From contig URPE01000001.1 in NCBI GenBank assembly GCA_900549625.1, positions 39,842-103,841 on the forward strand: a stretch of DNA of 64,000 nt. The letters are read 5' to 3'. The position numbers and the translations under genes were made by a program. This DNA comes from an uncultured Mycoplasmatota bacterium (lineage in GTDB: Bacteria; Bacillota_I; Bacilli_A; RF39; UBA660). Shown here in pieces: positions 9,030 through 24,767 of this stretch. How positions within the stretch are numbered: position 1 is the stretch's first letter; each line of letters begins with the position of its first letter. The notes under the pieces are model-generated. The model saw only the letters and a list, made by a program, of their open reading frames with translations. It did no database searches and was not told where the DNA came from.

Positions 9030-11267
9030 ATGGAAAATAACGAAAATAACGAAAATTTAGAAACTACTAAAGAAATACTATCTTTAAAAGATTTTGCTTT
9101 AGAAGCTACTAATAATGAAGAAAGTGTAGTATTACCAATCATTGAAGAAGCCCCGATTGAAGCTTTAGATGAAAATATGGAAGAGTCTAACTTAGTCTTT
9201 GATACTGTTGTAAAAACTAAGGAAGATATTGCTAAAAATGAAAATGAAGAACAAAAGACAAAAAAGAATATCTTTAAAACCTTAAAAGATAAATGGTCTA
9301 AATTAGACAAAAAGAAAAAAATAATAGTAATTGTTGTAACACTTATTTTAATAATTCTAATCTTTCTTGGTATTATCTTACTTGTTACTAATAATAAAGG
9401 TGATAAATCACCAGCGGAAAATATTGTTCTAGAAAGCGATAACTATCGTTATGAAAATGGTAAATTGATATTTCTAGATAATGATAAAGAAATAGGTGAG
9501 TATGAATGTAAAAATAAAGATGAAAATAGTTGTGCAGTATTCACTATTACTAGTCATGATAAACTTGATAATACTATTAAGGTAAATGAAAATAACGAAG
9601 AAATATCTGTTCATGCTAAAATTTATGATGGAACATATGCTTTTATAATTGATCATGGTTCAAGTGATGACAAAAGTATCCTTCTTTATAACATTAAAAA
9701 TAACACTGTTGAAGAAACTGTTTTTGATGTCATAATGTATGGTGATAACTACGTAAGTGTTAAAAATAACGAATCAAAATATGGTTTATTAGAATTTAAA
9801 GATGAAACAGTAAAAACACTTATTCCTTATGATTACGATGAATTAAGTCTTATTACTGAGGGTGATACTTCTATCGTGGTCGTTAAAAAAGATAACAATT
9901 CTTACTTGGCTAGTTTAGATAATAAAATTCTTACTAAAGCTTTTAATGAGACTATTACGGGGGCTAATGCTAATCATGTTAAAACAAAAGATGCTAATGG
10001 TAAATATAATGTTTATGACTATGAAGCCAAAAAAGTAAGTGAAAAAACATATGACTTTGTAAGTCTTTTAGACAATATCATGCTAGTTGTTCGTGATAAT
10101 GCCTTATACGTATATGACTACGAAAACAACAAAATGATGGATGGTAGTCTTTCATTAAATAATGATGCTTATAACAAAATAGAAACTTATAAAAATAAAA
10201 AACTAATTAAAACTAAACAAGCTTATACTTATGAATTAACAGGTAACTTATTAAATATTAACATTTATACCGATGATGACTCTGAAAATCATTCTATTAA
10301 CTTATTAGAAGGTACACTATCAAGTAAACTAGCTTATATGAATTACTTTGCCGGTAAACTTAGTTTCTATGCTGATGAAACAAAGAAAAATAAAATTGGC
10401 GAATACACATGTACTAATCAAAATCAAGTTGATAGTAATACCACTACTTTAAATAATTGCCGTCTAGCAACTGAGTCATTTTTAAGAGAAACAGATTCTA
10501 ATAATAAAGAAAAAGATGCATCCGCGTCTCTCGGTTGGATACCAATTATTGGTAGTAGATATGCTTTCATTACTGATGGTGATACAATAAAACTATATGA
10601 TTTTAAAGATAACAAAGAACTTGCTAATTACAGTGAAGTTGATACATTTAGTTATACTAATGCCTCTGAAATTACTTTCTCTAATGCTTCTAGTGTTTCT
10701 TTTATTGCTAAATCAAAAAGAACTGGTAAATATGGTGTAGCTAAGATAAGTGGCGATGGGGTAAAACCTATCCTTGAATTCCAATTTACAAGTATTAAAG
10801 CATTAGGTAACTACTATGTCGTAGAAGAAGATGGTAAGTATGCCTTGTATAATCTAGAAGGTGAAAAGAAAACTAGTGATTATAATAGTCCTGTAGTTGA
10901 TTACTTAGGATCTTATGTAAAGACTAAAAAAGATAATGCCTACTTTGTTCATGGCTTTAATGAAGAAGTATCAAGTGATTCTTATACTTATGTTGAACTT
11001 TATGATAATTACTATGCTGGTGTTTTACAAAATACGGTTGAAATTTACGATTACAAAGGTAAGTCTATTACTAAAAACTTACCAGAAAAAACTAGAGCTC
11101 AATTAAAACTGCAAATTAATAATTTTTATGGTCAAGGTACTAAGGCATTTGTTGTCACCTTTAAAAGTGGTGAATATGCTACAGTTAAAATTGGTACAGT
11201 AAGTGGTTCTTATGATACAGTGATAATTCCTTTAGATAACGCGAGTTTAGGTGATAATAATGACTAA
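9030..11267 (+). CDS. membrane-anchored WG-repeat (KWG/WG_beta_rep-like) protein
   Basis: Acidic N-terminus, one TM (IIVIVVTLILIILIFLGIILLV), then repeated units of the type KYGLLEFKDETVKTLIPYDYD, KYGVAKISGDGVKPILEFQF and KYALYNLEGEK. Confidence 0.5.
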   Translation: MENNENNENLETTKEILSLKDFALEATNNEESVVLPIIEEAPIEALDENMEESNLVFDTVVKTKEDIAKNENEEQKTKKNIFKTLKDKWSKLDKKKKIIVIVVTLILIILIFLGIILLVTNNKGDKSPAENIVLESDNYRYENGKLIFLDNDKEIGEYECKNKDENSCAVFTITSHDKLDNTIKVNENNEEISVHAKIYDGTYAFIIDHGSSDDKSILLYNIKNNTVEETVFDVIMYGDNYVSVKNNESKYGLLEFKDETVKTLIPYDYDELSLITEGDTSIVVVKKDNNSYLASLDNKILTKAFNETITGANANHVKTKDANGKYNVYDYEAKKVSEKTYDFVSLLDNIMLVVRDNALYVYDYENNKMMDGSLSLNNDAYNKIETYKNKKLIKTKQAYTYELTGNLLNINIYTDDDSENHSINLLEGTLSSKLAYMNYFAGKLSFYADETKKNKIGEYTCTNQNQVDSNTTTLNNCRLATESFLRETDSNNKEKDASASLGWIPIIGSRYAFITDGDTIKLYDFKDNKELANYSEVDTFSYTNASEITFSNASSVSFIAKSKRTGKYGVAKISGDGVKPILEFQFTSIKALGNYYVVEEDGKYALYNLEGEKKTSDYNSPVVDYLGSYVKTKKDNAYFVHGFNEEVSSDSYTYVELYDNYYAGVLQNTVEIYDYKGKSITKNLPEKTRAQLKLQINNFYGQGTKAFVVTFKSGEYATVKIGTVSGSYDTVIIPLDNASLGDNND

Positions 11268-12204
11268 TAAAAAAATAGAAAAGGGGGCCCTTATAACTAC
11301 AATTATTTTACTTGTTATATTTGTCCCTCTTTCTTGCCTTTCAATGTATTTTCATATTAAAGGAACTCCTAAAACAGAAGAAAATATAAATCATGAATTT
11401 CACTTTAATAACAAATTATGGTTTTATAGTAGTGAGGGCACTTTACTAGGGTCTTACAATTGTGAAACAGAAAAATGTGATTATGCTAACTATAGTAGTG
11501 AAGACGAAACTTATTCTATTGACAGTTTAAAATTTAGTGATAATAAAAGTTCTAGTATTAATGACACATTTGCTTTCTTAACAGATGGTACCGAAGATAT
11601 ATTCTTATATAACTTTAAAACAAACCTTAATTTTAAAACAAATCCCTATAAGATTGTTAATAATTACAATACTGGTATAGAAGGGTCTTTATATATAGTT
11701 AAAAACAAAAATGATAAATATGGAGTAATACAACTTCAAAATAATGCTATACCATTAATACCATTTAACTATGATTATATCGGTCTAAAAAATGAATTAG
11801 ATGAAAATGGCCAAGTTATAGCCGATTACTTTATTGTAAAAAAAGATGATAATTGGTTAATAATTGATCAAAAAGAAGCTAAATTAACTGAAGATTTTCA
11901 AGAAGAAATAATTTCCTATACTGGTAAAGAAATTATAACTAAGAATAATGATTACTATCATCTAAAAAATTATCAAAACGAAAACATTTTAACTGATGAT
12001 TTTAGTAAGTTATCTTTCACTGGTAAGTACTTAAATTGTACAACTTTAAATAATGAATTTTATGTATATGATGTTACTACTAATACTGAAATAAGTAATA
12101 GATATTCTATTGATAGTGATACATTGATTAAGACCGTAATAAATGATGCCAATAATCTAGAAATTTATATTGATGATAATTTAGTTGAAACAGTTTTATT
12201 ATAA
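11260..12204 (+). CDS. membrane-anchored WG-repeat protein (smaller paralogue of the preceding gene)
   Basis: N-terminal TM plus KYGVIQLQNNAIPLIPFNYDYIG-type repeats. ATG 11260 lies behind AGGTG and overlaps the end of the upstream gene. Confidence 0.5.
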   Translation: MTNKKIEKGALITTIILLVIFVPLSCLSMYFHIKGTPKTEENINHEFHFNNKLWFYSSEGTLLGSYNCETEKCDYANYSSEDETYSIDSLKFSDNKSSSINDTFAFLTDGTEDIFLYNFKTNLNFKTNPYKIVNNYNTGIEGSLYIVKNKNDKYGVIQLQNNAIPLIPFNYDYIGLKNELDENGQVIADYFIVKKDDNWLIIDQKEAKLTEDFQEEIISYTGKEIITKNNDYYHLKNYQNENILTDDFSKLSFTGKYLNCTTLNNEFYVYDVTTNTEISNRYSIDSDTLIKTVINDANNLEIYIDDNLVETVLL

Positions 12205-12276: not shown

Positions 12277-12831
12277 ATGTATAATTATATAGTTGGTAAA
12301 ATAACAGATATAGAATCAAGTTACATAGTACTAGAGTGTAGTGGTATTGGTTATCAAATTTATGTTTCTAATCCTTATCAGTTTGAAATAGATAAAGAAA
12401 CTAATGTATATGTATATACCCAGATAAAAGAAGACGAACATAATTTATATGGCTTTAAAACTAAAGAAGAAAAAGAATTGTTTTTAAAACTTATTAATGT
12501 TAAAGGTGTTGGACCTAAACTTGTAATGCCTATGCTTGCCACTGGTAGTGTAAGTGGTATTGTTGATGCCATAGATAGAGAAAATATCCTATACTTAAAA
12601 AAATTTCCTAAAGTAGGGGAGAAAGTTGCAAGACAAATTATTCTCGATTTAAAAGGAAAACTTGCTAAGACTAGTGATAACGCAAGCATCGGTGGTTTTG
12701 AAGAATTAGTAAGTGTTCTAGAGGGCTTAGGATATAAAGTGGCTGATATTAAAAAGATACTGCCTAATTTAAATCCAACCGATGAAATAGAATTGCAAGT
12801 TAAAGAAGCATTAAAATTATTACTTAAATAG
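12277..12831 (+). CDS. ruvA: Holliday junction branch migration complex subunit RuvA
   Basis: MYNYIVGKI..GIGYQIYV N-terminus, HhH motifs (LINVKGVGPK, KFPKVGEKVARQIILDLKGK), immediately upstream of ruvB. Confidence 0.9.
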   Translation: MYNYIVGKITDIESSYIVLECSGIGYQIYVSNPYQFEIDKETNVYVYTQIKEDEHNLYGFKTKEEKELFLKLINVKGVGPKLVMPMLATGSVSGIVDAIDRENILYLKKFPKVGEKVARQIILDLKGKLAKTSDNASIGGFEELVSVLEGLGYKVADIKKILPNLNPTDEIELQVKEALKLLLK

Positions 12832-12840
12832 GAGGGTGTT

Positions 12841-13848
12841 ATGGAAGATGATAAAATACTAGAGGCCGAAGAGCAAGAAATTGATAGCAGTTTACAAAAT
12901 ATTAGACCTCAAAGCTTAGATGAATATGTTGGCCAAAAAGAAATAACTGATAATTTAAGAGTATTTATAAAAGCAAGTAAAATTCGTAATGAATCACTTG
13001 ATCATGTGCTTTTATATGGCCCACCAGGTTTAGGTAAAACAACGCTTGCTCATATAATAGCTAACGAACTTGGGGTTGGTATTAAAACTGCATCTGGCCC
13101 ATCAATCGAAAAAAGTGGCGATTTAGCAGCTATTTTATCGACTCTTGAACCAGGTGATGTACTCTTTATTGATGAAATACACAGGATGCCTAAATTTATT
13201 GAAGAAATACTTTATCCTGCCATGGAAGACTTTGAAATGGATTTAGTTTTAAATAATGACGGCAAAAGTAGAAATATAAAAATTGATTTACCCCCATTTA
13301 CTTTAGTTGGGGCGACAACAAGAGCTGGTGATATTTCCTCACCTTTAAGAGACCGATTTGGTATCATTTCTAAATTACAATACTATACAGAAGATGAATT
13401 ATTACAGATAGTTACAAGAACAAGTAAAGTTCTTAATATGCCAATTGATGAAGACGCTGCGAGATTAATTGCTAAGCGTTGTCGTAAAACACCAAGAATT
13501 GCCAATCGTTTATTTAAACGTGTTCGTGATTTTGCTTTAGTAAGTGGGGCAGATAAAATAGAATATGATATGGCTAACGAATCTTTAAAACGTCTAAAAG
13601 TAGATGAATATGGTCTTGATTCCATTGATATTGAATACTTAAAAAGTTTAATTACTAAGTTTAACGGCGGACCTGTTGGCGTTGAAACTATCGCTACTAG
13701 TATAGGGGAAGAAGTATCCACAATAGAGGATGTTGTAGAACCATTCTTATTACAAGAAGGCTTTATTAAACGAACACCTAGAGGACGTATGGCAGAAGAA
13801 AAAGCGTATGACCATTTAAAAATTGATCATATGACTTCACTATTTTAA
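12841..13848 (+). CDS. ruvB: Holliday junction DNA helicase RuvB
   Basis: [11 protein letters not shown], Walker [10 protein letters not shown], Walker B LFIDEIHR, sensor [10 protein letters not shown]. Full length at 335 aa. Confidence 0.95.
13531..13848 (+). repeat. direct repeat copy 1 (3' end of intact ruvB)
   Basis: Matches 17304-17621 at a constant offset of 3773 with no indels. The first 275 bp are identical. There are six substitutions, all in the last 43 bp. Confidence 0.9.
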
Positions 13849-14397
13849 AAGGTATACCTATATAAAAAATAAACTAATTATTGATGAAGGGTCAAAAGAG
13901 AGTGGTAAAACACTCATTAACGGATGACTTAAGAAAAAATGTTGCTAGTGCTAATTTATACCGCTTATCCGGACAGAAAGATAAAAGCTTGATAGGCTTA
14001 AAACATAGTGAGAAAATGTATAAATCACTATTGAAATATCTCCATTCTATGGAAGATGTACCCATGGATTTAATATTTAAAAGATCCAAATTTATATACT
14101 GAACGTTTAAAAAGAAATCATTATCAAAACATTAGTTCAATTAACAGCGTTAATCAAGAGAATATATATTTGCAAATTAGTGAAAAATTAAAAGAAAACA
14201 CTAAATTTAATATTAATGTTATTGCTATGGATGATTTTGATGAGGCTTACAAAGAAGTAAGAAAAAATCTTGATATTTAATGAAAAAGCAGAAAATAAAG
14301 AATATTGTCATTTATATTAGAGTTAGCATGTAAAGAAAAAATGTAATAAAATATTTGCAAACACAATATTTAAATAATAAAAGTTTTAGGTGATGTT

Positions 14398-15294
14398 ATG
14401 TTAAGACAATTTAAGGGAATAAAATGGATAAATAATATGCCACATTTCATTTTATATAATTATGAAAATAATAGTATAGAATATAAAAAAGTGCAAGGGA
14501 TTATAGATATAAAAAAAGGAAAGCAAAGAAAATGCAATGGATATTACGATTTGGTTACACATAGATACATTGCCTGTCCAAATTTTAATAGTAGTGAGTC
14601 AGATAATGTTAAACAATGTGAAACATGTTTAAATATTACCGGATTTAATGAATGTCTTGGATGTGATGGTAAATATTGCAGAACTGTCAATAGTATTGCA
14701 AAAAAGTTTTGCACTCAAAAACATGTTGTGTATATTGCTCTATTCGGAAATAATAAATTCAAAGTTGGAACAGCTGCCGAATATAGAAAATACACAAGAA
14801 TATTAGAACAAGGTGCTATAGCATCAATGTTTATTGCTGAAACACTAGATGGTAAACAAGCAAGACTTATAGAACATTCAATATCAAAATTAGGATATGT
14901 GCTTCAGGTAAATTCGGCATTTAAAATGAAGAACTTAATAATTGATATGGATCGGACTGAAATTGAGAATATTTTAAAAGAGCATTACAATAATATTATG
15001 AATGGTATTCCTGATGTATTAAAGAAATATCTTATTTCTCCTGAAATTAATTATTGTGAAAAAATGAATAGGATGAATAAAAGGATTTTTGTGCCAAAAA
15101 AAATGCAGTTATCTCTTCTTGATAATAAAGTTCAAAATACATATAATATTAATTATTTTTTGAATTATGATAGTATATGTGGTAGAATAGTCAACGTTAT
15201 TGGGACTTTTTTAGTAATAAAATCAAATAATGATTTTTTAGTTTACGATACTAAAGAATTAGACGGGTATATTGTAAACATTAAATTAGGTTAG
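14398..15294 (+). CDS. Cys-rich (zinc-ribbon-like) DUF2797-like protein, function unknown
   Basis: Cys cluster (C..C, CETC, CLGC, C, C) followed by HVVYIALFGNNKFKVGTAAEYRKYTRILEQGA. I recall this as the DUF2797-type core (VYLA..KVG..R..QGA), which also resembles GIY-YIG/T5orf172-like cores. SD AGGTG upstream. Confidence 0.45.
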   Translation: MLRQFKGIKWINNMPHFILYNYENNSIEYKKVQGIIDIKKGKQRKCNGYYDLVTHRYIACPNFNSSESDNVKQCETCLNITGFNECLGCDGKYCRTVNSIAKKFCTQKHVVYIALFGNNKFKVGTAAEYRKYTRILEQGAIASMFIAETLDGKQARLIEHSISKLGYVLQVNSAFKMKNLIIDMDRTEIENILKEHYNNIMNGIPDVLKKYLISPEINYCEKMNRMNKRIFVPKKMQLSLLDNKVQNTYNINYFLNYDSICGRIVNVIGTFLVIKSNNDFLVYDTKELDGYIVNIKLG

Positions 15295-15305
15295 GGAGTG
15301 TTTAA

Positions 15306-16343
15306 ATGTTTGATTATCAAGGAATAGATTATAGCAGTATTATTGATTTAGGATGTACTAAGGCAACTTTTGAAAACCATTCGATGAGTCAATCACTTGA
15401 AAGATATATAGAAATGAAATTACAAGATATAATTTTTAGTGATTCGATATATAGGATACATGTAGTTGGTAATTATGATAGGAGCATAGGTGTTTCGACT
15501 AAAGAAAAAAATGATAAAATTTTCAATTATAAGAGACCAACAGTCTTTGTAGATAATGGTGTTGCGACAATTAATTGCTATCCAGGTATAGATTATGTAT
15601 ATCATTATGCAAGTTTAGTAAAAACATATTTGTCTCTTCTTGGAATAGAAAAAATAATTACAGTACAGTTTCCTACGGTTTCAAAAATTGAGAGTCAGTT
15701 AATTAAATCTAATATAAATGAAGTGCCAAAATGTAAAACAGTAATATTGGGTTATGTGCAAGGCTTTGAGTACTTATCCAGTACAGAAAATTGGCTTGGG
15801 ACTGGAGATTTTCTATGGAAATTAATAACTGATGATAAAATATTAGTTGGCTGTAAGCATAGTTATTGGGGGGATATTTCAGGCTATATTGTTGCTGCCT
15901 TAGCACGAAAAGGCGTTGAAAGAGTTATATATGTTGGAAAACTTGGAACATTAAATGAAAAATATGCACCGAATGAGACAATTGCCACTGGAAACAAAAG
16001 CATATTTATTGATGGTAGTTTAGTTGAATGGAATAATGTATTTGCTGATTTTAATTATGATACCATTAAGAATGGGGTTCATTTTACGCTGCCTAGTATA
16101 ATTCAAGAAACAACAGATTGGGTTCTGCAAAACAAAAATGAAATTGCATTTGTTGATCCAGAAATTGGCCATATGGCTAAATCTGCACTGCAAAACGGAA
16201 TTAGTTATTCCTATTTGCATATTATATCAGACAACTTATCAAAGAAATTCTCTGAAGACTTATCTAATGAAAGAAAAGAAGATGTGCTAATTAAAAGGAA
16301 AAAGTTAATTAAAACAATAGGAGATTGTTTAATGGATATATAA
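15306..16343 (+). CDS. two-domain protein: unknown ~140-aa N-domain plus PNP_UDP_1 (nucleoside phosphorylase/nucleosidase) fold
   Basis: C-terminal half has WGDISGYIVAALARKGVERVIYVGKLGTL and VDPEIGHMAKSALQNGISYSYLHIISDNL. These parallel the G-rich segment and the xEMEaxA...R.ISD segment of MtnN/AMP-nucleosidase-type enzymes. Starts 11 nt after the previous gene, behind GGGAG. Confidence 0.55.
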   Translation: MFDYQGIDYSSIIDLGCTKATFENHSMSQSLERYIEMKLQDIIFSDSIYRIHVVGNYDRSIGVSTKEKNDKIFNYKRPTVFVDNGVATINCYPGIDYVYHYASLVKTYLSLLGIEKIITVQFPTVSKIESQLIKSNINEVPKCKTVILGYVQGFEYLSSTENWLGTGDFLWKLITDDKILVGCKHSYWGDISGYIVAALARKGVERVIYVGKLGTLNEKYAPNETIATGNKSIFIDGSLVEWNNVFADFNYDTIKNGVHFTLPSIIQETTDWVLQNKNEIAFVDPEIGHMAKSALQNGISYSYLHIISDNLSKKFSEDLSNERKEDVLIKRKKLIKTIGDCLMDI

Positions 16344-16345
16344 AA

Positions 16346-16374
16346 ACTGTGTTACTAAACACAGTGATTTTTTT
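16346..16374. terminator. bidirectional hairpin between convergent genes
   Basis: ACTGTGT-tacta-ACACAGT with a T-run on the plus strand and an A-run upstream. Overlaps the last codons of the CYTH gene. Confidence 0.5.
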
Positions 16375-16924
16375 CCATTACAAGTTGTGGGTATCCTGCA
16401 AATATTTGTTTTCCGACATTAATTCCTAACTCTTCTATAGTATCCATAATATATTTCATACTTTCATCTTCGTTATCATATAAATTTGTCTTGAATTCTA
16501 ATTCTATGAAGTCTCCTAAGTTTTCTATAGAATCAATTGATATAATAATATTATTATATTCAAATGAATTTCTTGTTTTTTCAACAACTATTATTTGTTG
16601 AAAATCTAAGGCAATTAACATTTCAAGCATTCCATTATAGTCATCAATTCCAACTTCAATTTCTTTGCAGGAAATTTTATTATTGCCATCACGATTACCC
16701 CAATTTTTGTAATTAATAGTTTTTTCTTTCTTTGTATCTCTTACTCTAAGCCATTCTGAAATAGGTCTTTTTTCGAGGAAATTTTCATGTGCTGGTGTAT
16801 AATATATATCTTTTTGATAGTTATTTTCTTCAACTTTTTTACCTAGTTTTTTTAATTTTACCAATGTATCTTCCTTGTTAATCAAGGGGAATTTTGCTTC
16901 AATTTCTATTCTTTTTCTTTCCAT
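16355..16924 (-). CDS. CYTH-domain protein (class IV adenylate cyclase CyaB / triphosphate tunnel metalloenzyme family)
   Basis: Starts MERKRIEIEAKFPL (ExExK signature) behind GGAGG. Has later acidic strands (LGDFIELEF) and is about 189 aa, typical of CyaB-like proteins. Confidence 0.7.
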   Translation of the reverse strand: MERKRIEIEAKFPLINKEDTLVKLKKLGKKVEENNYQKDIYYTPAHENFLEKRPISEWLRVRDTKKEKTINYKNWGNRDGNNKISCKEIEVGIDDYNGMLEMLIALDFQQIIVVEKTRNSFEYNNIIISIDSIENLGDFIELEFKTNLYDNEDESMKYIMDTIEELGINVGKQIFAGYPQLVMEKNHCV

Positions 16925-16972
16925 ATCATAACCTCCATATAAATTATATAATATTTCACTTTTTAATGTCAA

Positions 16973-17303
16973 TCAACTATCAGCAACAATCAGGTCAAAT
17001 TTTTTTGCTTGTTCGTAATGTGAAAAGTCAGTCATAGGATGATAGTTATCATCAAAATTATATCTAATAGCCCATTTTTCTAAGGGTTTACAATTATTTA
17101 AAATAAAGTCATATAAATATTTGGATGGCTCTAAATGAACAAAATAGGCAAATTCTTTGAAAGATAATTTAAAAGTCAAAATGATTTTTATATAATAATT
17201 AAGATTAGGATAAAGGCGATTTAAATCTTTACTTGGAATATCGTTATTATGAAAGGTGTTTTGTTTTATTGGCGTTTCTTCTTTCTTAATAGCTATAATA
17301 GAA
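16973..17303 (-). pseudogene. 5'-truncated ORF abutting the ruvB' repeat (unknown family)
   Basis: The open frame ..IPSKDLNRLYPNLNYY..KPLEKWAIRYNFDDNYHPMTDFSHYEQAKKFDLIVADS has no plausible start codon or SD before it enters the ruvB-antisense sequence. The 173-aa ORF in the track is a chimera with ruvB antisense. Confidence 0.45.
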
Positions 17304-17621
17304 TTTGCTTTAGTAAGTGGGGCAGATAAAATAGAATATGATATGGCTAACGAATCTTTAAAACGTCTAAAAGTAGATGAATATGGTCTTGATTCCATTG
17401 ATATTGAATACTTAAAAAGTTTAATTACTAAGTTTAACGGCGGACCTGTTGGCGTTGAAACTATCGCTACTAGTATAGGGGAAGAAGTATCCACAATAGA
17501 GGATGTTGTAGAACCATTCTTATTACAAGAAGGCTTTATTAAACGAACACCTAGAGGACGTATGGCAGAAGAAAAAGCATATGACCATTTAAAAATCGAT
17601 CATATGACCTCTTTGTTTTAA
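17304..17621 (+). pseudogene. orphan ruvB 3' fragment (direct repeat copy 2)
   Basis: Encodes the last 105 aa of RuvB ([13 protein letters not shown]...HMTSLF), identical in protein to the intact gene but with six synonymous differences near the stop. Lacks the ATPase domains. Confidence 0.9.
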
Positions 17622-17661
17622 GATTTTTAGGGAATATTATTAAGCTTGAAAGGAGTTAGAC

Positions 17662-18555
17662 ATGAAAAACGAGAATGTAGAAATGAAAATGTGGAGTAGT
17701 CACCCACAAAAGATCGATAACTGGGATACAAATATAGACTATGTTATGTTCATTGACGAAAATGGTAATTCCGGAAAAATTAATGATATATTTAAAAAAA
17801 GACTGTATAACGAAAAAATTTCTGTAGACGAAAAATATTTTACTATTACAGGCGTTATATTTGAAAAAAGTAATTATTCAAAAATGAGAAATGATATTAG
17901 GAAACTTAAGGAAAAATATTGGCAACGTGGTTATTACTATGATTCGAAGCACAAGGATACAAGATATGTTTGCTTGCATTCTAGGGAGATCAGAAACCAT
18001 ACAGGTGCTTTTAATGATAAGGTGATAGATTATGACAAGTTTATAAATGAATTAAGTAACACTTTAGAAAAAATAGAATGTAAAATTATATCAATAACTA
18101 TAAATCTTGAAAATTATATTCTTAAGGATGAGCAAATTCCAGTTTATGATAAGGCTTTCGATTTATTATTAGAGAGGTATGTTTATGCTACAGATAGTCA
18201 TAAAAAAGGTATTATAATGTTTGAGTCAAGAGGAAAAAATGAAGATAAAGATCTTCTTAAGCATATTTCAAATATTATGTTTGCAAAAGGAACAGAGCAT
18301 ATTAAAAATTCAGAATTGCAAGAAAAAATTAAAGGAATTTATTTTAACCCTAAATGGTATGGCGGATATTCTTCAACTTATGCTGGTCTTGAAATCGCTG
18401 ATTTATTTTCTTATCCTATTCATTCCACAATTAAGTTGCGTAAGAAACACCCATCCTTTATTACTATTGAAAAAAAGATAGATTGTTATCCGCATTATGA
18501 AAATAAGGGTATTAAAATTTATCCAAAAGAAAAGGACGATATACATCATCCTTAA
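17662..18555 (+). CDS. DUF3800-family protein
   Basis: N-terminal FIDENGNSG (DUF3800-type DExG motif) and C-terminal GLEIADLFSYPI. SD GGAG upstream. Confidence 0.55.
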   Translation: MKNENVEMKMWSSHPQKIDNWDTNIDYVMFIDENGNSGKINDIFKKRLYNEKISVDEKYFTITGVIFEKSNYSKMRNDIRKLKEKYWQRGYYYDSKHKDTRYVCLHSREIRNHTGAFNDKVIDYDKFINELSNTLEKIECKIISITINLENYILKDEQIPVYDKAFDLLLERYVYATDSHKKGIIMFESRGKNEDKDLLKHISNIMFAKGTEHIKNSELQEKIKGIYFNPKWYGGYSSTYAGLEIADLFSYPIHSTIKLRKKHPSFITIEKKIDCYPHYENKGIKIYPKEKDDIHHP

Positions 18556-18750
18556 CCGTACGAAATACTTCGTACCCCGAAGCGTTCTGCTTCCATGACA
18601 AAATAATAACATAGAAAATACTATTTTGTCAATTATAGTATATACAAAAAAAATAAATATATGCAAATTTTAGATTGTATGCTTTTTCTAAATTTCTTGT
18701 ATTATTCATACAATATGATATAATAGTCAGTACTAGAAAAGAGGTGCATT

Positions 18751-19335
18751 ATGGCTTTAATGGAAAAAAACAAATGCTATAAAATGAATTTATGCATTAT
18801 ACCAGATGGTGAATTGGTAGTTCAAGGTGATAAATTTAATAAATATTATAAATCAGTTAATGGTACCTTCGTTCCAAATGAAAAGTTTATTGTGCAAGAT
18901 AGTATTATTGTTAAAAAGGAAAGGTTTAATAATTATGTTACAGTAGTAGGAACTGATATTGAAATACCTTGCGTTATTTTAGAAATAGAAAATGTCTTAA
19001 GTAGAAACGAATATGATAGTAATGCTAATATTGTTAAATATATATCTTTGGTTGAAGGTAGAACTGATAAAATGTTAGTAGCCTTTGCAATTAATAAGAT
19101 AGGAGAAGTTCCAATCATGGAACATGAAGAAAGTTTTATGCTAAAAGAAGCAACTGAAGAAGAGATTAATAGCCAACTAGAAAATAGCCTTTACTATAAT
19201 TTTGCTGATGATTTACAAGCCTTAGTTAATAGTATTAGAACTAAAGAAATAAGTGATTTAAGAACATATAAAGAAAACTTAAAAAACGAAAAAAAGAGTA
19301 GAATGACAAGAGTAATTAAAAAAATCTTGCCTTAA
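18751..19335 (+). CDS. hypothetical protein (194 aa, no recognised motif)
   Basis: ORF with SD AAGAGGTG 5 nt upstream of the ATG. Soluble, with a K/E-rich C-terminus. Confidence 0.5.
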   Translation: MALMEKNKCYKMNLCIIPDGELVVQGDKFNKYYKSVNGTFVPNEKFIVQDSIIVKKERFNNYVTVVGTDIEIPCVILEIENVLSRNEYDSNANIVKYISLVEGRTDKMLVAFAINKIGEVPIMEHEESFMLKEATEEEINSQLENSLYYNFADDLQALVNSIRTKEISDLRTYKENLKNEKKSRMTRVIKKILP

Positions 19336-19344
19336 TAATAAATT

Positions 19345-19498
19345 TTTTGATACAATTATTATGTTGGTGATGATGCTGCCTTACAACCAGTGGAGTCAAA
19401 ACGTAAGATATACGTTACATTCAAAATAAAGATAGTTAGATTCTATGAATTAGGGTGGTACCACGGCATATTCGTCCCTATTGATGGAATCTTTTTTT
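19345..19498 (+). promoter_or_regulatory. T-box leader (probable Tyr specifier) with terminator/antiterminator
   Basis: T-box sequence AATTAGGGTGGTACCACGG (19448-19466). The terminator pairs AGATTCTATGAATTAGGG with CCCTATTGATGGAATCT and is followed by T7. UAC triplets at 19411 and 19416. Located upstream of the operon ending in tyrS. Confidence 0.75.
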
Positions 19499-22482: not shown

Positions 22483-22547
22483 TGAGCGAAAATGGTTTTT
22501 AAATTGCCAAATTTATTGTATAATACTAATTGAATTGGAGGAATTAT

Positions 22548-24767
22548 ATGAAATTTCGTGTATCTTCTAAAGACTTTACGATATTTGTAGTCTTTTGTGT
22601 CTTTTTACTTTATTTATGCGCTATTGCGGTATTAAACTTTTCATCTTTTGCAAATGATGGTTCATTTTATGGTTTAAATCCTTTTCCAGCTTTTGGGAAA
22701 GATTATATCGTTTTAACTTTATTTATGTTTGCCGTAGCTCTAGTTATTATATTCTCTAGCGTTTCTTCTTATATATTTGATAAAGATAAAAGTGGTAAAA
22801 AATTTTTGAATATTGGTGATAAGGAAGAAAAAGGTTATTCAAGATGGGCTAAAGAAAAAGAAATTAAAAGTGCCAAAGACGTTGTTCATGTTAAAACTAT
22901 TGATCAACATGTTGAAGGAGCAGGTGTTCCTTTGATTAACAATGGCACTGATGTTTGGGTTGATAATTCCGCGTATCACACAATGATAATAGGTTCAACT
23001 GGTTCAGGTAAAACTGAGTGTATAGTAAAACCACAAGTTAACCTTTTAGCCAAAAAAGGCGAAAGTATGGTTATCAATGACCCTAAAGGTGAATTGTATA
23101 AGTATTGTGGTGATTACTTAAAAGAACAAGGCTATAATATTGTTGTTTTAAATTTCCGTGATCCTACAGAAGGTAATTCTTGGAATCCTCTTTCTATGCC
23201 ATACTATTATTATAAAAATGGTAATACCGATAAAGCAATTGAGTTACTTGAGGATATAGCTAATAATATTTTAGTTGACCCTAAAAATAAAGACTCAGCT
23301 TTCTGGGAACAATCTGGTGCCGACTATTTTGCTGGTCTTGCCCTAGCTTTATTTAGAGATGGTAAAGAAGAAGAAATAAATTTAAACTCAATTAATTTAA
23401 TGAGTACTGTTGGTGAAGAAAGAATTGGGGCTAAAACTTACGTTCAAGAATATTTCAATATGAAAGGGGAAGCTTCACCAGAATATATTTTTGCCTCAAC
23501 TACTTTTAATGCACCTAGTGATACAAAAGGTGGTATTTTATCTACTTTTAGACAAAAAATTCGTATTTTTGCTTCCCGTGAAAAATTATCAGAAATGCTT
23601 TCTTATAGTGATTTTGATATGCGTAGTATTGGTGAGAAAAAAACAGCCGTTTTCTTAATTGTGCATGATGAAAAAACAACTTACCATAGTTTACTTACTG
23701 TCTTTTTAAAACAATGTTATGAAACTTTAGTTGAAGTTGCCCAAACAAGTGGTGGTAAATTAAAGTATCGTACTAATTTCATTCTTGATGAGTTTGCTAA
23801 CATGCCTCCTTTAAGTGATGTTGATTCTATGGTTTCAGCTGCTCGTAGTAGAAGTATTAGATTTACCTTTATTATTCAAAACTTTTCGCAATTAAACGAT
23901 GTTTATGGTAAAGAGGTTGCCCAAACTATTCGTGGTAACTGTGGTAATACAATTTACTTAATAAGCACGGAAATGGCGGCCTTAGAAGAAATAAGTAAAA
24001 TGTGTGGTGAAGTTAAAAGTAAAGACAAAGATAAAACAGCTTCTACACCACTTGTAACTGTAACTGACTTACAAAAAATGAAATTGTTCCAAGCTATAAT
24101 TATGCGTATTCGTATGGCTCCATATAAAGTACAATATACGCCAGATTTCAAAATTAACTGGGGTATTGAAAGAAAAGATTTTTCATTTCCTCATCGGGAA
24201 GAAAAGACTGTTTCAACATTTGATTTAAAAACTTTTGTTTCGGAAGCTAAAAGACGACAAATGATGGAAAATGCCAAGAATGGTGAACAAGCACCAAATC
24301 CTTTCAATCCTTTTGGTGGTATGGGTATGCCTAGTAATCCATTTATGAGTGGCATGGGTGGTTTCCCAAGTTTAGATGCAAGTGAAAAATCATCACCTAA
24401 AAGTACATCACCTAATATTGCAAGCCCATTAGGAATAGATGCACCTAATAAACCACTTTCTGCTTTAACTAATGATGAAATTGATAAAATGATAGCGGAT
24501 ATTGATAAAAAATTAGCAGAACTTGAAGAAGAAGAGAAGAAAGAAAAAGAAGCCTCATCAATGAAGAAAGAAGAACCAAAAAATATTGAACTTCCTAAAT
24601 TAGAAGAACAAACTTCTATTACTAATAAAGAAGAAGTAAAAAAAGAAGATATTAAAGAAGTAAATAATGATAAACCAAAAATAAATGTTGATGCAGATTC
24701 AATTGTTATGAATGATAATGTCATAACTGATGATGAGTTCTTTGATGATTTCTTTGGTGAAGAATAA
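22548..24767 (+). CDS. VirD4/TraG-family type IV coupling-protein-like ATPase (orphan) with a low-complexity C-terminal tail
   Basis: Two N-terminal TMs, Walker A GSTGSGKTE, Walker B NFILDEFANM, and RSRSIRFTFIIQNFSQL. The last ~190 aa are P/G/M-rich then E/K-rich. ATG 22548 lies behind GGAGG. Confidence 0.7.
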   Translation: MKFRVSSKDFTIFVVFCVFLLYLCAIAVLNFSSFANDGSFYGLNPFPAFGKDYIVLTLFMFAVALVIIFSSVSSYIFDKDKSGKKFLNIGDKEEKGYSRWAKEKEIKSAKDVVHVKTIDQHVEGAGVPLINNGTDVWVDNSAYHTMIIGSTGSGKTECIVKPQVNLLAKKGESMVINDPKGELYKYCGDYLKEQGYNIVVLNFRDPTEGNSWNPLSMPYYYYKNGNTDKAIELLEDIANNILVDPKNKDSAFWEQSGADYFAGLALALFRDGKEEEINLNSINLMSTVGEERIGAKTYVQEYFNMKGEASPEYIFASTTFNAPSDTKGGILSTFRQKIRIFASREKLSEMLSYSDFDMRSIGEKKTAVFLIVHDEKTTYHSLLTVFLKQCYETLVEVAQTSGGKLKYRTNFILDEFANMPPLSDVDSMVSAARSRSIRFTFIIQNFSQLNDVYGKEVAQTIRGNCGNTIYLISTEMAALEEISKMCGEVKSKDKDKTASTPLVTVTDLQKMKLFQAIIMRIRMAPYKVQYTPDFKINWGIERKDFSFPHREEKTVSTFDLKTFVSEAKRRQMMENAKNGEQAPNPFNPFGGMGMPSNPFMSGMGGFPSLDASEKSSPKSTSPNIASPLGIDAPNKPLSALTNDEIDKMIADIDKKLAELEEEEKKEKEASSMKKEEPKNIELPKLEEQTSITNKEEVKKEDIKEVNNDKPKINVDADSIVMNDNVITDDEFFDDFFGEE

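Follow-up and report, generated by a model that had tools for sequence, protein, structure and literature searches.

The duplicated 3' end of ruvB in a gut bacterial genome: a probable scar of one microhomology join between two stacked gene cassettes

Introduction

How does the 3' end of a core gene come to stand twice in a genome, with accessory genes between the copies? Some integrative islands, among them tyrosine-recombinase islands and prophages, insert at a gene's 3' end and rebuild it. Campbell-type integration of a non-replicating circle, such as a suicide plasmid, duplicates the segment of homology and is reversible, and RecA-independent duplication occurs at short repeats. The question is raised by ruvB in the 64,000-nucleotide stretch of DNA analyzed here (the window), which a sequence-only reading had explained as Campbell-type integration of a circularized fragment. 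We find it probable that the locus is the scar of homologous pairing combined with one microhomology-mediated illegitimate join, which would have stacked two cassettes, rather than the att site of a mobile element.

Results

The window carries ruvA (12277-12831, plus strand; Pfam RuvA_N/HHH_5/RuvA_C and the ORF list) as its conserved left flank, with pilin-like N_methyl genes upstream of it in strains L009 and L096. An intact ruvB follows (12841-13848, plus strand; 335 aa; Pfam RuvB_N, AAA_lid_4 and RuvB_C), encoding a protein that was found in identical form on 22 contigs read. Nucleotides 691-1008 of this gene form the first repeat copy, R1 (13531-13848, plus strand; repeat search and alignment), while the second copy, R2 (17304-17621, plus strand), is a 5'-truncated ruvB pseudogene fragment. 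A repeat search of the window paired 13528-13827 with 17301-17600 at 99% identity and a spacing of 3773. MAFFT aligned R1 and R2 without gaps over 318 bp at that spacing, with identity unbroken from 13531/17304 to the stop codon save for six mismatches at offsets 275, 293, 305, 308, 309 and 311 (13806, 13824, 13836, 13839, 13840 and 13842). Both copies translate to the same 105 residues and a stop, so all six differences are synonymous. The gapless repeat, its offset and its six synonymous differences are thus exactly as first described, and a 318-bp match within a 64-kb window is far beyond chance.

This repeat had been divided into 275 identical and 43 divergent base pairs, and its two tails had been taken as derived from distinct functional ruvB alleles. 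Campbell integration leaves repeats that are unlike at every site where the parental alleles are unlike, to either side of the crossover. Over offsets 0-299, R1 and R2 are a single haplotype that shares the private variant 281 C together with 290 A and 299 T; these three sites fall inside the supposedly divergent 43 bp, and the split does not hold as a crossover signature. The copies differ from one another by 2 private singletons in 300 bp, as against 5-20 (median 12) between sampled strains. As aligned across strains, only the last four differences (offsets 305-311) are two pre-existing tail haplotypes linked to the downstream cassette: t1 (ACTTCACTATTTTAA), which ends the intact ruvB and is common to A-type strains, and t2 (ACCTCTTTGTTTTAA), which ends R2. 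The single haplotype over 300 bp implies near-clonal parents, an origin within one genome or later gene conversion.

We next turn to the DNA between the copies, which the sequence-only reading had treated as one block of genes from downstream of ruvB. It is instead a patchwork of a kinase pseudogene, a three-gene module and a piece of a gene from the lepA-hemW locus. The first 43 bp past the ruvB stop codon are also present in A-type strains. Beyond R1 lies a pseudogene of a P-loop (dNK/Tmk-like) kinase of about 190 aa (13862-14277, plus strand), which takes in a 72-aa open reading frame (orf72, 13884-14102). It was delimited by tblastn with the kinases of L011, L013, L014, L024 and L044 as queries, in three matches: frame 3 covers kinase residues 1-25, frame 1 residues 7-78 (E values between 1e-20 and 1e-25) and frame 2 residues 106-186 (between 1e-9 and 1e-17). 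The gene is thus frameshifted across three reading frames, and about residues 79-105 are missing. In five sister species, the gene immediately behind ruvB is the orthologous kinase gene; the adjacency of ruvB and pseudokinase hence represents ancestral synteny, and the first ~430 bp of the "insert" are probably resident DNA.

Homology to other genomic contexts of the module begins at about 14365. Its first gene encodes a 298-aa DUF2797 protein (14398-15294, plus strand; Pfam PF10977, E value 9.5e-14). The second encodes a 345-aa protein (15306-16343, plus strand) with 174 homologs, all unnamed, and no Pfam match. Its AlphaFold2 model (pLDDT 93.7) suggests a PNP/MTAN (nucleoside phosphorylase/nucleosidase) fold, with Foldseek matches to 1jdv, 5cce and similar structures at E values of ~1e-10, beside about 110 extra N-terminal residues. 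The third, convergent gene encodes a 189-aa CYTH-domain protein (16355-16924, minus strand; Pfam PF01928, E value 8.9e-26; a gene call has the same start); a bidirectional terminator-like hairpin (16346-16365) lies between the two. A predicted, perfect sigma-70-type promoter (TTGACA-18-TATAAT; 16943-16972, minus strand) would drive the CYTH gene. In four different contexts, the module ends on the right at the outer edge of this promoter, nucleotide 16972. The module is conserved from gut Bacilli to Streptococcus, and a two-gene core as far as Nostoc.

A fixed module end, and the habit of elements that target gene 3' ends of restoring the gene with a copy of their own, would suit a site-specific element targeting the ruvB 3' end, with a replacement tail and a recombinase that acts in trans or was lost. 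This reading is largely refuted, and we regard it as extremely improbable. Recombinase families are absent from all ORFs in 13.8-19.3 kb (Pfam and PADLOC), with no integrase, resolvase or transposase in 13.8-18.6 kb, and searches for plasmid, phage or viral-contig relatives gave no matches. The 318-bp repeat is bounded within microhomology to an unrelated gene and has no short att core, and the module occurs in its other contexts without any ruvB sequence. Moreover, across 80 species-level related ruvB loci, a second ruvB tail was absent throughout (0/80), as was any recombinase gene within the ruvB-queA gap; the lack of second tails marks the duplication as a one-off event rather than a recurrent site-specific process. 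The earlier statements that the insert lacks an integrase and is not a self-mobile element agree with these searches.

PADLOC likewise returned no matches for the module, the DUF3800 gene described below or the alternative genes for proteins of 268 and 589 aa, placing the cargo outside the known defense and mobile-element families that it covers. The trio might be a discrete module that moves without a recombinase, maybe an uncharacterized nucleoside- or nucleotide-processing system, possibly anti-phage, whose capture the duplication would record and whose gain and loss R1 and R2 would make reversible. We hold this to be a speculative and improbable reading.

Between the module and R2 lie a 22-bp filler (16973-16994), which has no homology to the contexts of the module or to the 445-aa gene considered next, and a 309-bp segment, S2 (16995-17303, minus strand). 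S2 covers about aa 231-333 from the interior of a 445-aa HTH-family gene and is truncated at both ends, with HMMER matches to P0121 and P0122. Elsewhere its source gene always lies between lepA and hemW, the native order in relatives (L107-L118) being lepA, a spoIIID-like gene, the 445-aa gene and hemW. One homolog, L106, matches window positions 16995-17315 at 90% nucleotide identity, and the codon differences in S2 comprise 12 synonymous and 13 non-synonymous changes. The last ORF of the insert (16973-17303, minus strand) is indeed cut exactly at the repeat boundary, as had been claimed, and represents a true gene fragment; the rest of the minus-strand ORF is an open antisense frame of ruvB, also present at the first copy (13383-13721).

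As read from a three-way alignment, 17303/17304 is the sole novel junction of the structure (J1), and it falls inside a 9-bp microhomology, TTTGCTTTA (17304-17312, plus strand), which matches ruvB nucleotides 691-699 as well as, in antisense, TAAAGCAAA of the 445-aa gene. The microhomology is read from homologs 90% identical to S2, which stand in for the true parent; the 9-mer is colinear in all three sampled alleles of the 445-aa gene (3/3). Both strands of the window, 128 kb in total, contain this 9-mer just 9 times, or about 7e-5 per position. The 19 nucleotides beside the junction are abnormally divergent from the 445-aa gene (9 mismatches, P ~3e-5), so the join may be more complex than a simple microhomology crossover.

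An exact repeat of 275 bp is longer than short-read k-mers, the source is metagenomic, and contigs of one metagenome-assembled genome (MAG) end inside the repeat, all of which could suggest an artefact of assembly, or that co-occurring strains were merged into a chimera at their common ruvB segment. We consider this very improbable. The novel junction S2|R2 is identical in at least three assemblies, counted as assemblies, which are not necessarily different individuals. In particular, a low-coverage contig of 869 bp (L092, from ERZ1749323) spans window positions 16797-17665 unbroken with 1 mismatch, linking the 5' end of the CYTH gene, S2, the whole of R2, tail t2 and the start of the DUF3800 gene. 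A further contig (L094; GCA_900772455.1, contig 59) equals 13731-17378 with 0 mismatches, another from the same MAG (L105, contig 76) begins 118 bp inside R2 and runs on into the DUF3800 gene, and L095 (SRR1761720) equals 13776-17073. Assemblers do not use 9-bp overlaps for joining, private differences phase each repeat copy with its own flanks, and the window has no runs of N. Since the same junctions recur in other assemblies, the duplication is very probably no artefact, one of the two outcomes that had been named as refuting the earlier reading.

To the right of R2, a 40-bp spacer that includes the ribosome-binding site of the DUF3800 gene (17622-17661, plus strand; 96% identity to L005 and 94% to L006) directly adjoins t2, an arrangement identical to that of B-type strains. 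The DUF3800 gene (17662-18555, plus strand; 297 aa, Pfam PF12686) is an alternative cassette, and window positions 17301-18671 are 98.2% identical to L005. The conserved right flank, common to A-type strains, begins with 18678-19335 (plus strand), which contains a 194-aa gene (18751-19335), and continues with pepS and tyrS.

Comparison across strains bears out the claim that the position after ruvB is a variable hotspot: at least five layouts occur downstream of the identical RuvB, namely a gene for a 268-aa protein, DUF3800, queA, the three-gene module (L096/L097) and the window itself. The flanks (ruvA/ruvB on one side; the 194-aa gene, pepS and tyrS on the other) are 95-98% identical among strains with different cassettes, flank identity over the five layouts being 94-98%, and t1 with the following 43 bp goes with A-type strains, t2 with the spacer going with DUF3800 strains and L096. 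In other genera, the gap between ruvB and queA holds the housekeeping genes folD, glyA, thyA, dhfr and tmk. The comparison of relatives proposed by the sequence-only reading yielded both an empty-site-like layout in L005 and L006 (ruvB, tail 2, a 41-bp spacer and DUF3800) and a donor-like one in L096 and L097 (ruvB, DUF2797, PNP-like and CYTH genes, with no duplication), the latter module having other junctions, a t2 tail and 87% identity to that of the window. The exact empty site (ruvB, DUF3800, the 194-aa gene and pepS) is seen only as two halves, in L005 and in the L096 lineage. No strain was found to carry ruvB, the pseudokinase, the module and a longer 445-aa gene fragment alone, and one parent is therefore hypothetical.

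From these observations we propose that, in this species complex of uncultured low-GC gut Bacilli, the segment after ruvB exists in alternative cassette forms, which homologous recombination would swap with the ruvB 3' end and the downstream 194-aa and pepS genes as its anchors. A first form would consist of ruvB with t1, the kinase pseudogene, the DUF2797/PNP-like/CYTH module and the 445-aa gene fragment, a second of ruvB with t2, the spacer and DUF3800, and the window would be the two stacked. One illegitimate join would have fused the gene fragment to ruvB nucleotide 691 within the 9-bp TTTGCTTTA, ordinary homology settling the other side; the outcome would be an intact ruvB and a dead 3' copy, R2, left ahead of DUF3800. 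The imported side could be either the three-gene module or R2-DUF3800. The pathway itself we infer, and three routes yield the exact product: (a) homology-facilitated illegitimate recombination (HFIR) of linear DNA, anchored left or right; (b) integration, by a single crossover, of a circle that had closed at the TTTGCTTTA microhomology; and (c) a tandem duplication mediated by microhomology, after which a DUF3800-type cassette took the place of the second unit from R2 onward.

Under route (b), the sequence-only proposal, a fragment of a related strain (ruvB from nucleotide 691, t1, pseudokinase, module and S2) would have circularized, and one RecA crossover inside the 318-bp homology would have inserted it into a ruvB-DUF3800 recipient. 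The topology fits exactly: the target ruvB is intact, the homology segment stands as a direct repeat on either side of the inserted DNA, as a Campbell product requires, there is one closure junction (J1), and recipient-type DNA lies beyond. Microhomology of 9 bp at the closure is expected of illegitimate circularization or excision between short direct repeats, and L005 and L006 supply empty-site-like strains. However, among the contigs there is neither a circle nor a circle-junction contig (S2-R-t1), L092 being the integrated form S2-R-t2, and none carries pseudokinase, module and S2 without R2, as would an insert contiguous in a donor. The repeats should be allele hybrids, and a single haplotype as far as offset 299 would call for near-clonal parents or for conversion at a later time. 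What adjoins ruvB in the "circle" is the ancestral ruvB neighbor, at least as likely resident as imported, and linear HFIR gives the same product with no circle. A circular intermediate is thus compatible with the structure and not required by it, and we judge this route possible, if somewhat unlikely.

Route (c), in which the 3773-bp unit would have been duplicated in tandem, or by a template switch, between the two TTTGCTTTA copies within one genome, is the sole route in which R1 equals R2 at birth. It fits the 2 singletons in 300 bp and the shared 281 C, as well as the switch to the t2 haplotype within offsets 300-305. The junction is as expected of unequal exchange between short direct repeats, and the mutation cluster beside J1 and the 22-bp filler resemble error-prone, template-switching repair. 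Yet this route calls for two events, with an unstable tandem duplication still in place at the time of the second, a full second unit appears in no contig, and near-clonal parents or gene conversion would account for the identity no less well. We consider it unlikely.

Discussion

The ruvB-tail duplication is a well-resolved but ordinary genome scar of a known kind. The nearest parallel to a join of homology and microhomology is HFIR, described in naturally transformable bacteria by de Vries and Wackernagel in 2002, Prudhomme et al. in 2002 and Meier and Wackernagel in 2003 (via PMC6382021), for which PMC6382021 gives joins at 3-10 bp of microhomology adjoining a homologous anchor. As in HFIR, one side of the window structure is set by conserved-gene homology and the other by microhomology within that range (9 bp), and foreign or alternative DNA is added beside the anchor with no recombinase. 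Unlike the HFIR cases, the window comes from a wild metagenomic genome rather than an experiment, and it keeps a 318-bp duplicate of the anchor gene, whereas the usual HFIR outcome is an insertion-deletion.

With Campbell integration the locus shares a direct duplication that brackets the insert, a gene left intact since the segment includes its 3' end, and the ability to revert; it differs in having no vector or origin, in repeats of one haplotype rather than reciprocal hybrids, and in an "insert" that consists in part of DNA ancestral to the locus. Merodiploidy, whether spontaneous or induced by transformation, and tandem duplication between repeats, short or long (Johnston et al., 2013, PMC3784515), similarly double a core-gene segment; there too, the DNA left of the downstream repeat is joined at microhomology to the DNA right of the upstream one. 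In the window, by contrast, only the 318-bp end of the unit is doubled, and an extra homologous replacement step is needed. Islands at gene 3' ends also have accessory genes flanked by a duplicated gene end, with the tail haplotype traveling with the cargo, but the window has no integrase or short att core, its boundary is microhomology to an unrelated gene, and relatives do not show its structure again.

If R1 and R2 recombine in a RecA-dependent manner, the 3.77-kb unit should be lost and a ruvB-DUF3800 layout restored, and a high-frequency deletion variant is predicted from the repeat. DUF3800 would meanwhile have been removed from its position directly behind the ruvAB operon. The repeat also interrupts short-read assemblies at the locus, as in one MAG. 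More generally, a duplicated 3' end around an insert is not by itself evidence of an integrative element or a circular intermediate, and the identical/divergent split of such repeats need not reflect a crossover. Taken together, the locus offers a natural example, resolved to the nucleotide, of how accessory genes may pile up at a core-gene hotspot in the absence of mobile-element machinery: a 9-bp microhomology join and ordinary homology would have sufficed to stack two cassettes, with a core-gene pseudo-tail remaining as the diagnostic trace.

A duplicated ruvB 3' end flanks a 3.45-kb segment

A repeat search paired window positions 13528-13827 with 17301-17600 at 99% identity and a spacing of 3773. 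Pairwise alignment placed the start of identity at TTTGC (13531/17304) and followed it to the stop codon with six mismatches (offsets 275, 293, 305, 308, 309 and 311), giving two 318-bp copies, R1 (13531-13848) and R2 (17304-17621). A sequence-only reading had proposed a gap-free duplication with these six differences, and our alignment returned the same coordinates; its further statement that all six are synonymous also holds, since R1 and R2 give identical translations. R1 lies in an intact ruvB gene of 335 aa (Pfam RuvB_N, AAA_lid_4 and RuvB_C), and R2 is a 5'-truncated fragment running from ruvB nt 691 onward. Rfam gave no match within or adjoining R1 and R2.

The window has 28.7% GC and zero Ns, and the duplicated structure is not confined to one assembly (the assemblies are not necessarily from different people). 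An 869-bp contig of another assembly (L092; L-numbers denote contigs and loci compared with the window) spans, with one mismatch, the start of the CYTH gene of the segment, the adjoining gene fragment S2, the entire R2 with its tail, and the start of the downstream DUF3800 gene. In MAG GCA_900772455.1, contig 59 equals window 13731-17378 exactly and contig 76 starts 118 bp within R2 and continues into DUF3800; this contig break is the pattern expected of an assembler at a true repeat. Another contig, L095, corresponds to window 13776-17073. Matching junction contigs in these other assemblies make an assembly artefact very improbable.

The segment is a patchwork of four pieces

In the first piece (13862-14277), the gene for a ~190-aa P-loop (dNK/Tmk-like) kinase persists as a pseudogene with frameshifts and an internal deletion, of which gene calling picked up only a 72-aa ORF (13884-14102). 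Compared with the kinases of five sister species (L011, L013, L014, L024 and L044), it matches in three frames with E down to 1e-25 (residues 1-25 in frame 3, 7-78 in frame 1 and 106-186 in frame 2), with ~30 residues absent. In these species an intact kinase gene lies 8-22 bp after ruvB and is followed by queA; the DNA directly after R1 is therefore ruvB's ancestral neighbour and not obviously imported.

The second piece (~14365-16972) is a three-gene module, with a DUF2797 gene (14398-15294), a gene for a 345-aa protein without a Pfam match (15306-16343) and, convergent to the latter on the minus strand, a CYTH protein gene (16355-16924). A hairpin terminator separates the convergent genes, and the CYTH promoter is a perfect TTGACA-18-TATAAT. 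The model of the 345-aa protein (pLDDT 93.7) has a purine-nucleoside-phosphorylase/MTA-nucleosidase (PNP/MTAN) fold with an extra N-terminal region; none of its ~174 homologues is named, and the literature assigns no function to DUF2797. The module is found in several unrelated genomic contexts: besides window 14365-16972 it occupies L096 9060-11666, L101 9085-11708 and L099 9741-11596 (a partly decayed copy), and occurs in L119 and L120. In gut Bacilli its gene order is conserved. Its right end is the same nucleotide in four contexts, where the -35 element of the CYTH promoter has its outer limit. In Streptococcus orisasini it appears as CYTH, a 261-aa protein and the homologue, beside genes for pyruvate-kinase-like and thymidylate-kinase-like proteins, and in Nostoc as a two-gene core. 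DUF2797, the PNP/MTAN-fold protein and CYTH are conserved together as a module that is still uncharacterised.

After 22 bp without a traced source (16973-16994) comes the fourth piece, S2 (16995-17303, minus strand). The sequence-only reading saw here a last minus-strand ORF cut at the repeat boundary, and this proved correct: S2 is a true gene fragment, truncated at both ends. A word-indexed protein search with the 109-codon minus ORF found no homologue, and the reading of this ORF as spurious was overturned by a metagenome scan and a full HMMER search. The scan located S2 at 90% nucleotide identity in a 60-kb contig (L106) where it covers about aa 231-333, midway along a 445-aa ORF (L106 5288-6625), and the HMMER search returned a small family of ~450-aa proteins, with one 90% cluster of 74 members and two distant relatives, one of which has N-terminal HTH domains. 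In every context recovered (L106 and L107-L118) the native order is lepA, spoIIID-like, 445-aa gene, hemW, ..., mutS, and the 445-aa gene overlaps the spoIIID-like gene. Because the source gene sits between lepA and hemW in all of them, S2 is an internal fragment from a different chromosomal neighbourhood. A search of the window's own MAG for this gene in intact form led to the NCBI-sourced cluster member P0128, which turned out to originate in other samples.

The ORFs of 13.8-19.3 kb gave no recombinase and no PADLOC defence-model match, in agreement with the earlier view that the insert lacks an integrase, and plasmid, phage and viral-contig collections held no relatives of the 3.45-kb segment.

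The ruvB-downstream locus varies between strains

At least 22 contigs encode one and the same RuvB protein, and what follows ruvB on them takes several forms. In A-type strains (six contigs shown) ruvB is followed by a 268-aa gene, a 194-aa gene and pepS; in B-type strains (L005 and L006), by a 41-bp spacer and DUF3800; and in L009, directly by queA. The window's own layout is a fourth arrangement after the identical RuvB. In a fifth, that of D-type strains (L096/L097, a ~90% identical lineage), the order is ruvB, 241 bp, the three-gene module, a DUF3800 3' remnant, the 194-aa gene and pepS; the module is 87% identical to that of the window, and ruvB is not duplicated. Here the module has replaced the spacer together with ~475 bp at the DUF3800 5' end, and the remnant, with homology from window 18137, was called as a 112-aa ORF (L096 11780-12118, and in L097). 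The DUF3800 gene of L006 is apparently frameshifted. Neither of the two spacers in L096 (241 bp and 36 bp) is homologous to S1, S2 or the spacer of the window, so L096 is not derived from the window by deletion or circle re-insertion.

Comparison of relatives thus supplied both the empty-site-like and the donor-like layouts that the sequence-only reading had suggested looking for, and bore out its view of the locus as a variable hotspot in this species complex, with several layouts behind one RuvB. Its proposal that the inserted genes lay downstream of ruvB in a related strain stands for the module, which occupies that position in L096/L097, but not for the segment as a unit, which is a patchwork including the ancestral kinase piece and S2 from the lepA-hemW locus. 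Exact-protein look-up of the 72-aa ORF, CYTH, DUF3800 and the junction ORF recovered only the window's own layout, and no parent carrying ruvB, kinase pseudogene, module and gene fragment alone.

A site-specific element using ruvB as its target would be expected to recur, but none of 80 species-level ruvB loci has a second ruvB tail or an integrase, and a literature search turned up no comparable integration site at ruvB. The duplication arose once and is not a recurrent site-specific process; such an element is scarcely credible here, and we regard both it and an assembly artefact as unlikely. In more distant genera the ruvB-queA gap is variable, with folD, glyA, thyA, dhfr and tmk and no integrase, which is folate/thymidylate operon plasticity of housekeeping genes, not mobile DNA. 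Among related genera (L011-L056) this interval is between 10 bp and 5.3 kb long, and its genes are drawn in different combinations from folD, glyA, thyA, dhfr, a UMP-kinase-like gene and tmk.

The surroundings vary as well. In the window, two paralogous proteins (745 aa and 317 aa, ~25% identical; 9030-12204) precede ruvA. L009 and L096/L097 encode the identical RuvB behind different upstream genes, including pilin-like N_methyl proteins, so the left flank of ruvAB has also been rearranged between lineages. Just upstream of pepS-tyrS lies a T-box-leader-like element (19318-19482; E 2e-7, 44 bits, below the Rfam gathering score of 93), plausibly one of the tyrosine type. A VirD4/TraG-type coupling-protein gene (22530-24767; T4SS-DNA_transf, TrwB_AAD_bind and TraG-D_C) keeps its context among strains with different ruvB cassettes. 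It is followed by rhodanese, rmuC and M23 peptidase genes in the window and by genes for 490-aa and 1250-aa proteins in L002/L003, and therefore marks a second variable point.

A probable microhomology join and two linked tail haplotypes

The sole junction in the whole structure that is unmatched in any other strain or species is that between S2 and ruvB nt 691, at 17303/17304. In a three-way alignment ruvB reads ...GAT TTTGCTTTA GTAAG... and the antisense 445-aa gene, known from its 90%-identical homologue, reads ...TATTTTGCTTTATTA...; the window changes from the latter to the former inside the common 9-mer TTTGCTTTA. This 9-mer occurs nine times in 128 kb (both strands of the window), which makes its chance occurrence at precisely the colinear place very improbable. 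The alignment shows the hallmark of microhomology-mediated illegitimate recombination. In the 19 nt of S2 beside the 9-mer (17285-17303) there are 9 mismatches to each of the three sampled alleles of the gene, compared with 7.6% over the rest of the fragment (P ~3e-5). They do not form a ruvB/gene mosaic, as only 8 of the 19 positions match ruvB; the cluster may reflect error-prone synthesis during joining or else an allele outside those sampled.

Inside the repeat, the last four differences (offsets 305-311) distinguish the haplotypes ACTTCACTATTT (t1, in R1) and ACCTCTTTGTTT (t2, in R2). The t1 tail accompanies sequence common to window 13849-13891 and A-type strains, and t2 accompanies the DUF3800 spacer in L005, L006 and L096. 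That the tails come from distinct ruvB alleles, as had been claimed, is therefore supported at offsets 305-311, where each is linked to its own downstream DNA, but not at offsets 275 (G in R1 only) and 293 (C in R2 only), which are private to one copy. Within the last 43 bp both copies share a C at 281 found in no other strain, and 290 A and 299 T, unlike other DUF3800-type strains. Over offsets 0-299 just 2 sites distinguish them, against 5-20 (median 12) in pairwise comparisons of seven sampled alleles. R1 and R2 are thus one haplotype to offset 299, and the split into 275 identical and 43 divergent bp does not mark a crossover. In a Campbell product the repeats differ at every parental-allele difference on both sides of the crossover point, so a single crossover does not produce this pattern. 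The identity reflects either near-clonal parents differing only in their cassette, an intragenomic copy, or later gene conversion, from which the last 14 bp would escape because there is no homology beyond them.

We consider it likely that the duplication is a recombinase-free scar, left by homology and one microhomology join between two cassette haplotypes: form 1, ruvB(t1)-kinase pseudogene-module-gene fragment, and form 2, ruvB(t2)-spacer-DUF3800, which the window carries stacked. Three routes each yield the exact observed product through one illegitimate and one homologous step. The first would be homology-facilitated illegitimate recombination (HFIR) of linear DNA. If left-anchored, a form-1 donor strand would anchor in ruvB upstream of nt 691 and its far end would pair at TTTGCTTTA in a DUF3800-type recipient, which is topologically workable if the donor's own repeat looped out with the heterology; if right-anchored, a DUF3800-type donor would anchor in the 194-aa/pepS flank and its ruvB end would pair with a form-1 recipient at the TTTGCTTTA of the recipient's gene fragment. 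The second takes up the model of the sequence-only reading, integration of a circle, here one closed at TTTGCTTTA; a literal circular intermediate of this kind seems doubtful. The third, a tandem duplication between two TTTGCTTTA copies whose second unit was then replaced from the R2 end onward, would be intragenomic and is in our view rather unlikely. HFIR junctions of 3-10 bp beside a homologous anchor have been documented experimentally (PMC6382021), as has transformation-linked merodiploidy (PMC3784515). The closest known processes to the proposed scar are HFIR, Campbell-type integration and microhomology-mediated duplication.

Expected consequences of the duplication

The case is a natural example of an already known kind of process; with all but 22 bp assigned to a source, it is better resolved than is usual. 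The cargo module is the most interesting loose end, though it lies outside the duplication itself. For the cell, ruvB stays intact and R2 is probably a pseudogene; a 121-aa ORF from GTG 17256 has no convincing ribosome-binding site. DUF3800 directly follows ruvB in B-type strains, and here a convergent gene pair and a terminator stand between it and the ruvAB operon. Recombination of one 300-bp repeat with the other would be expected to remove the 3.77-kb unit, leaving the ruvB-DUF3800 layout.
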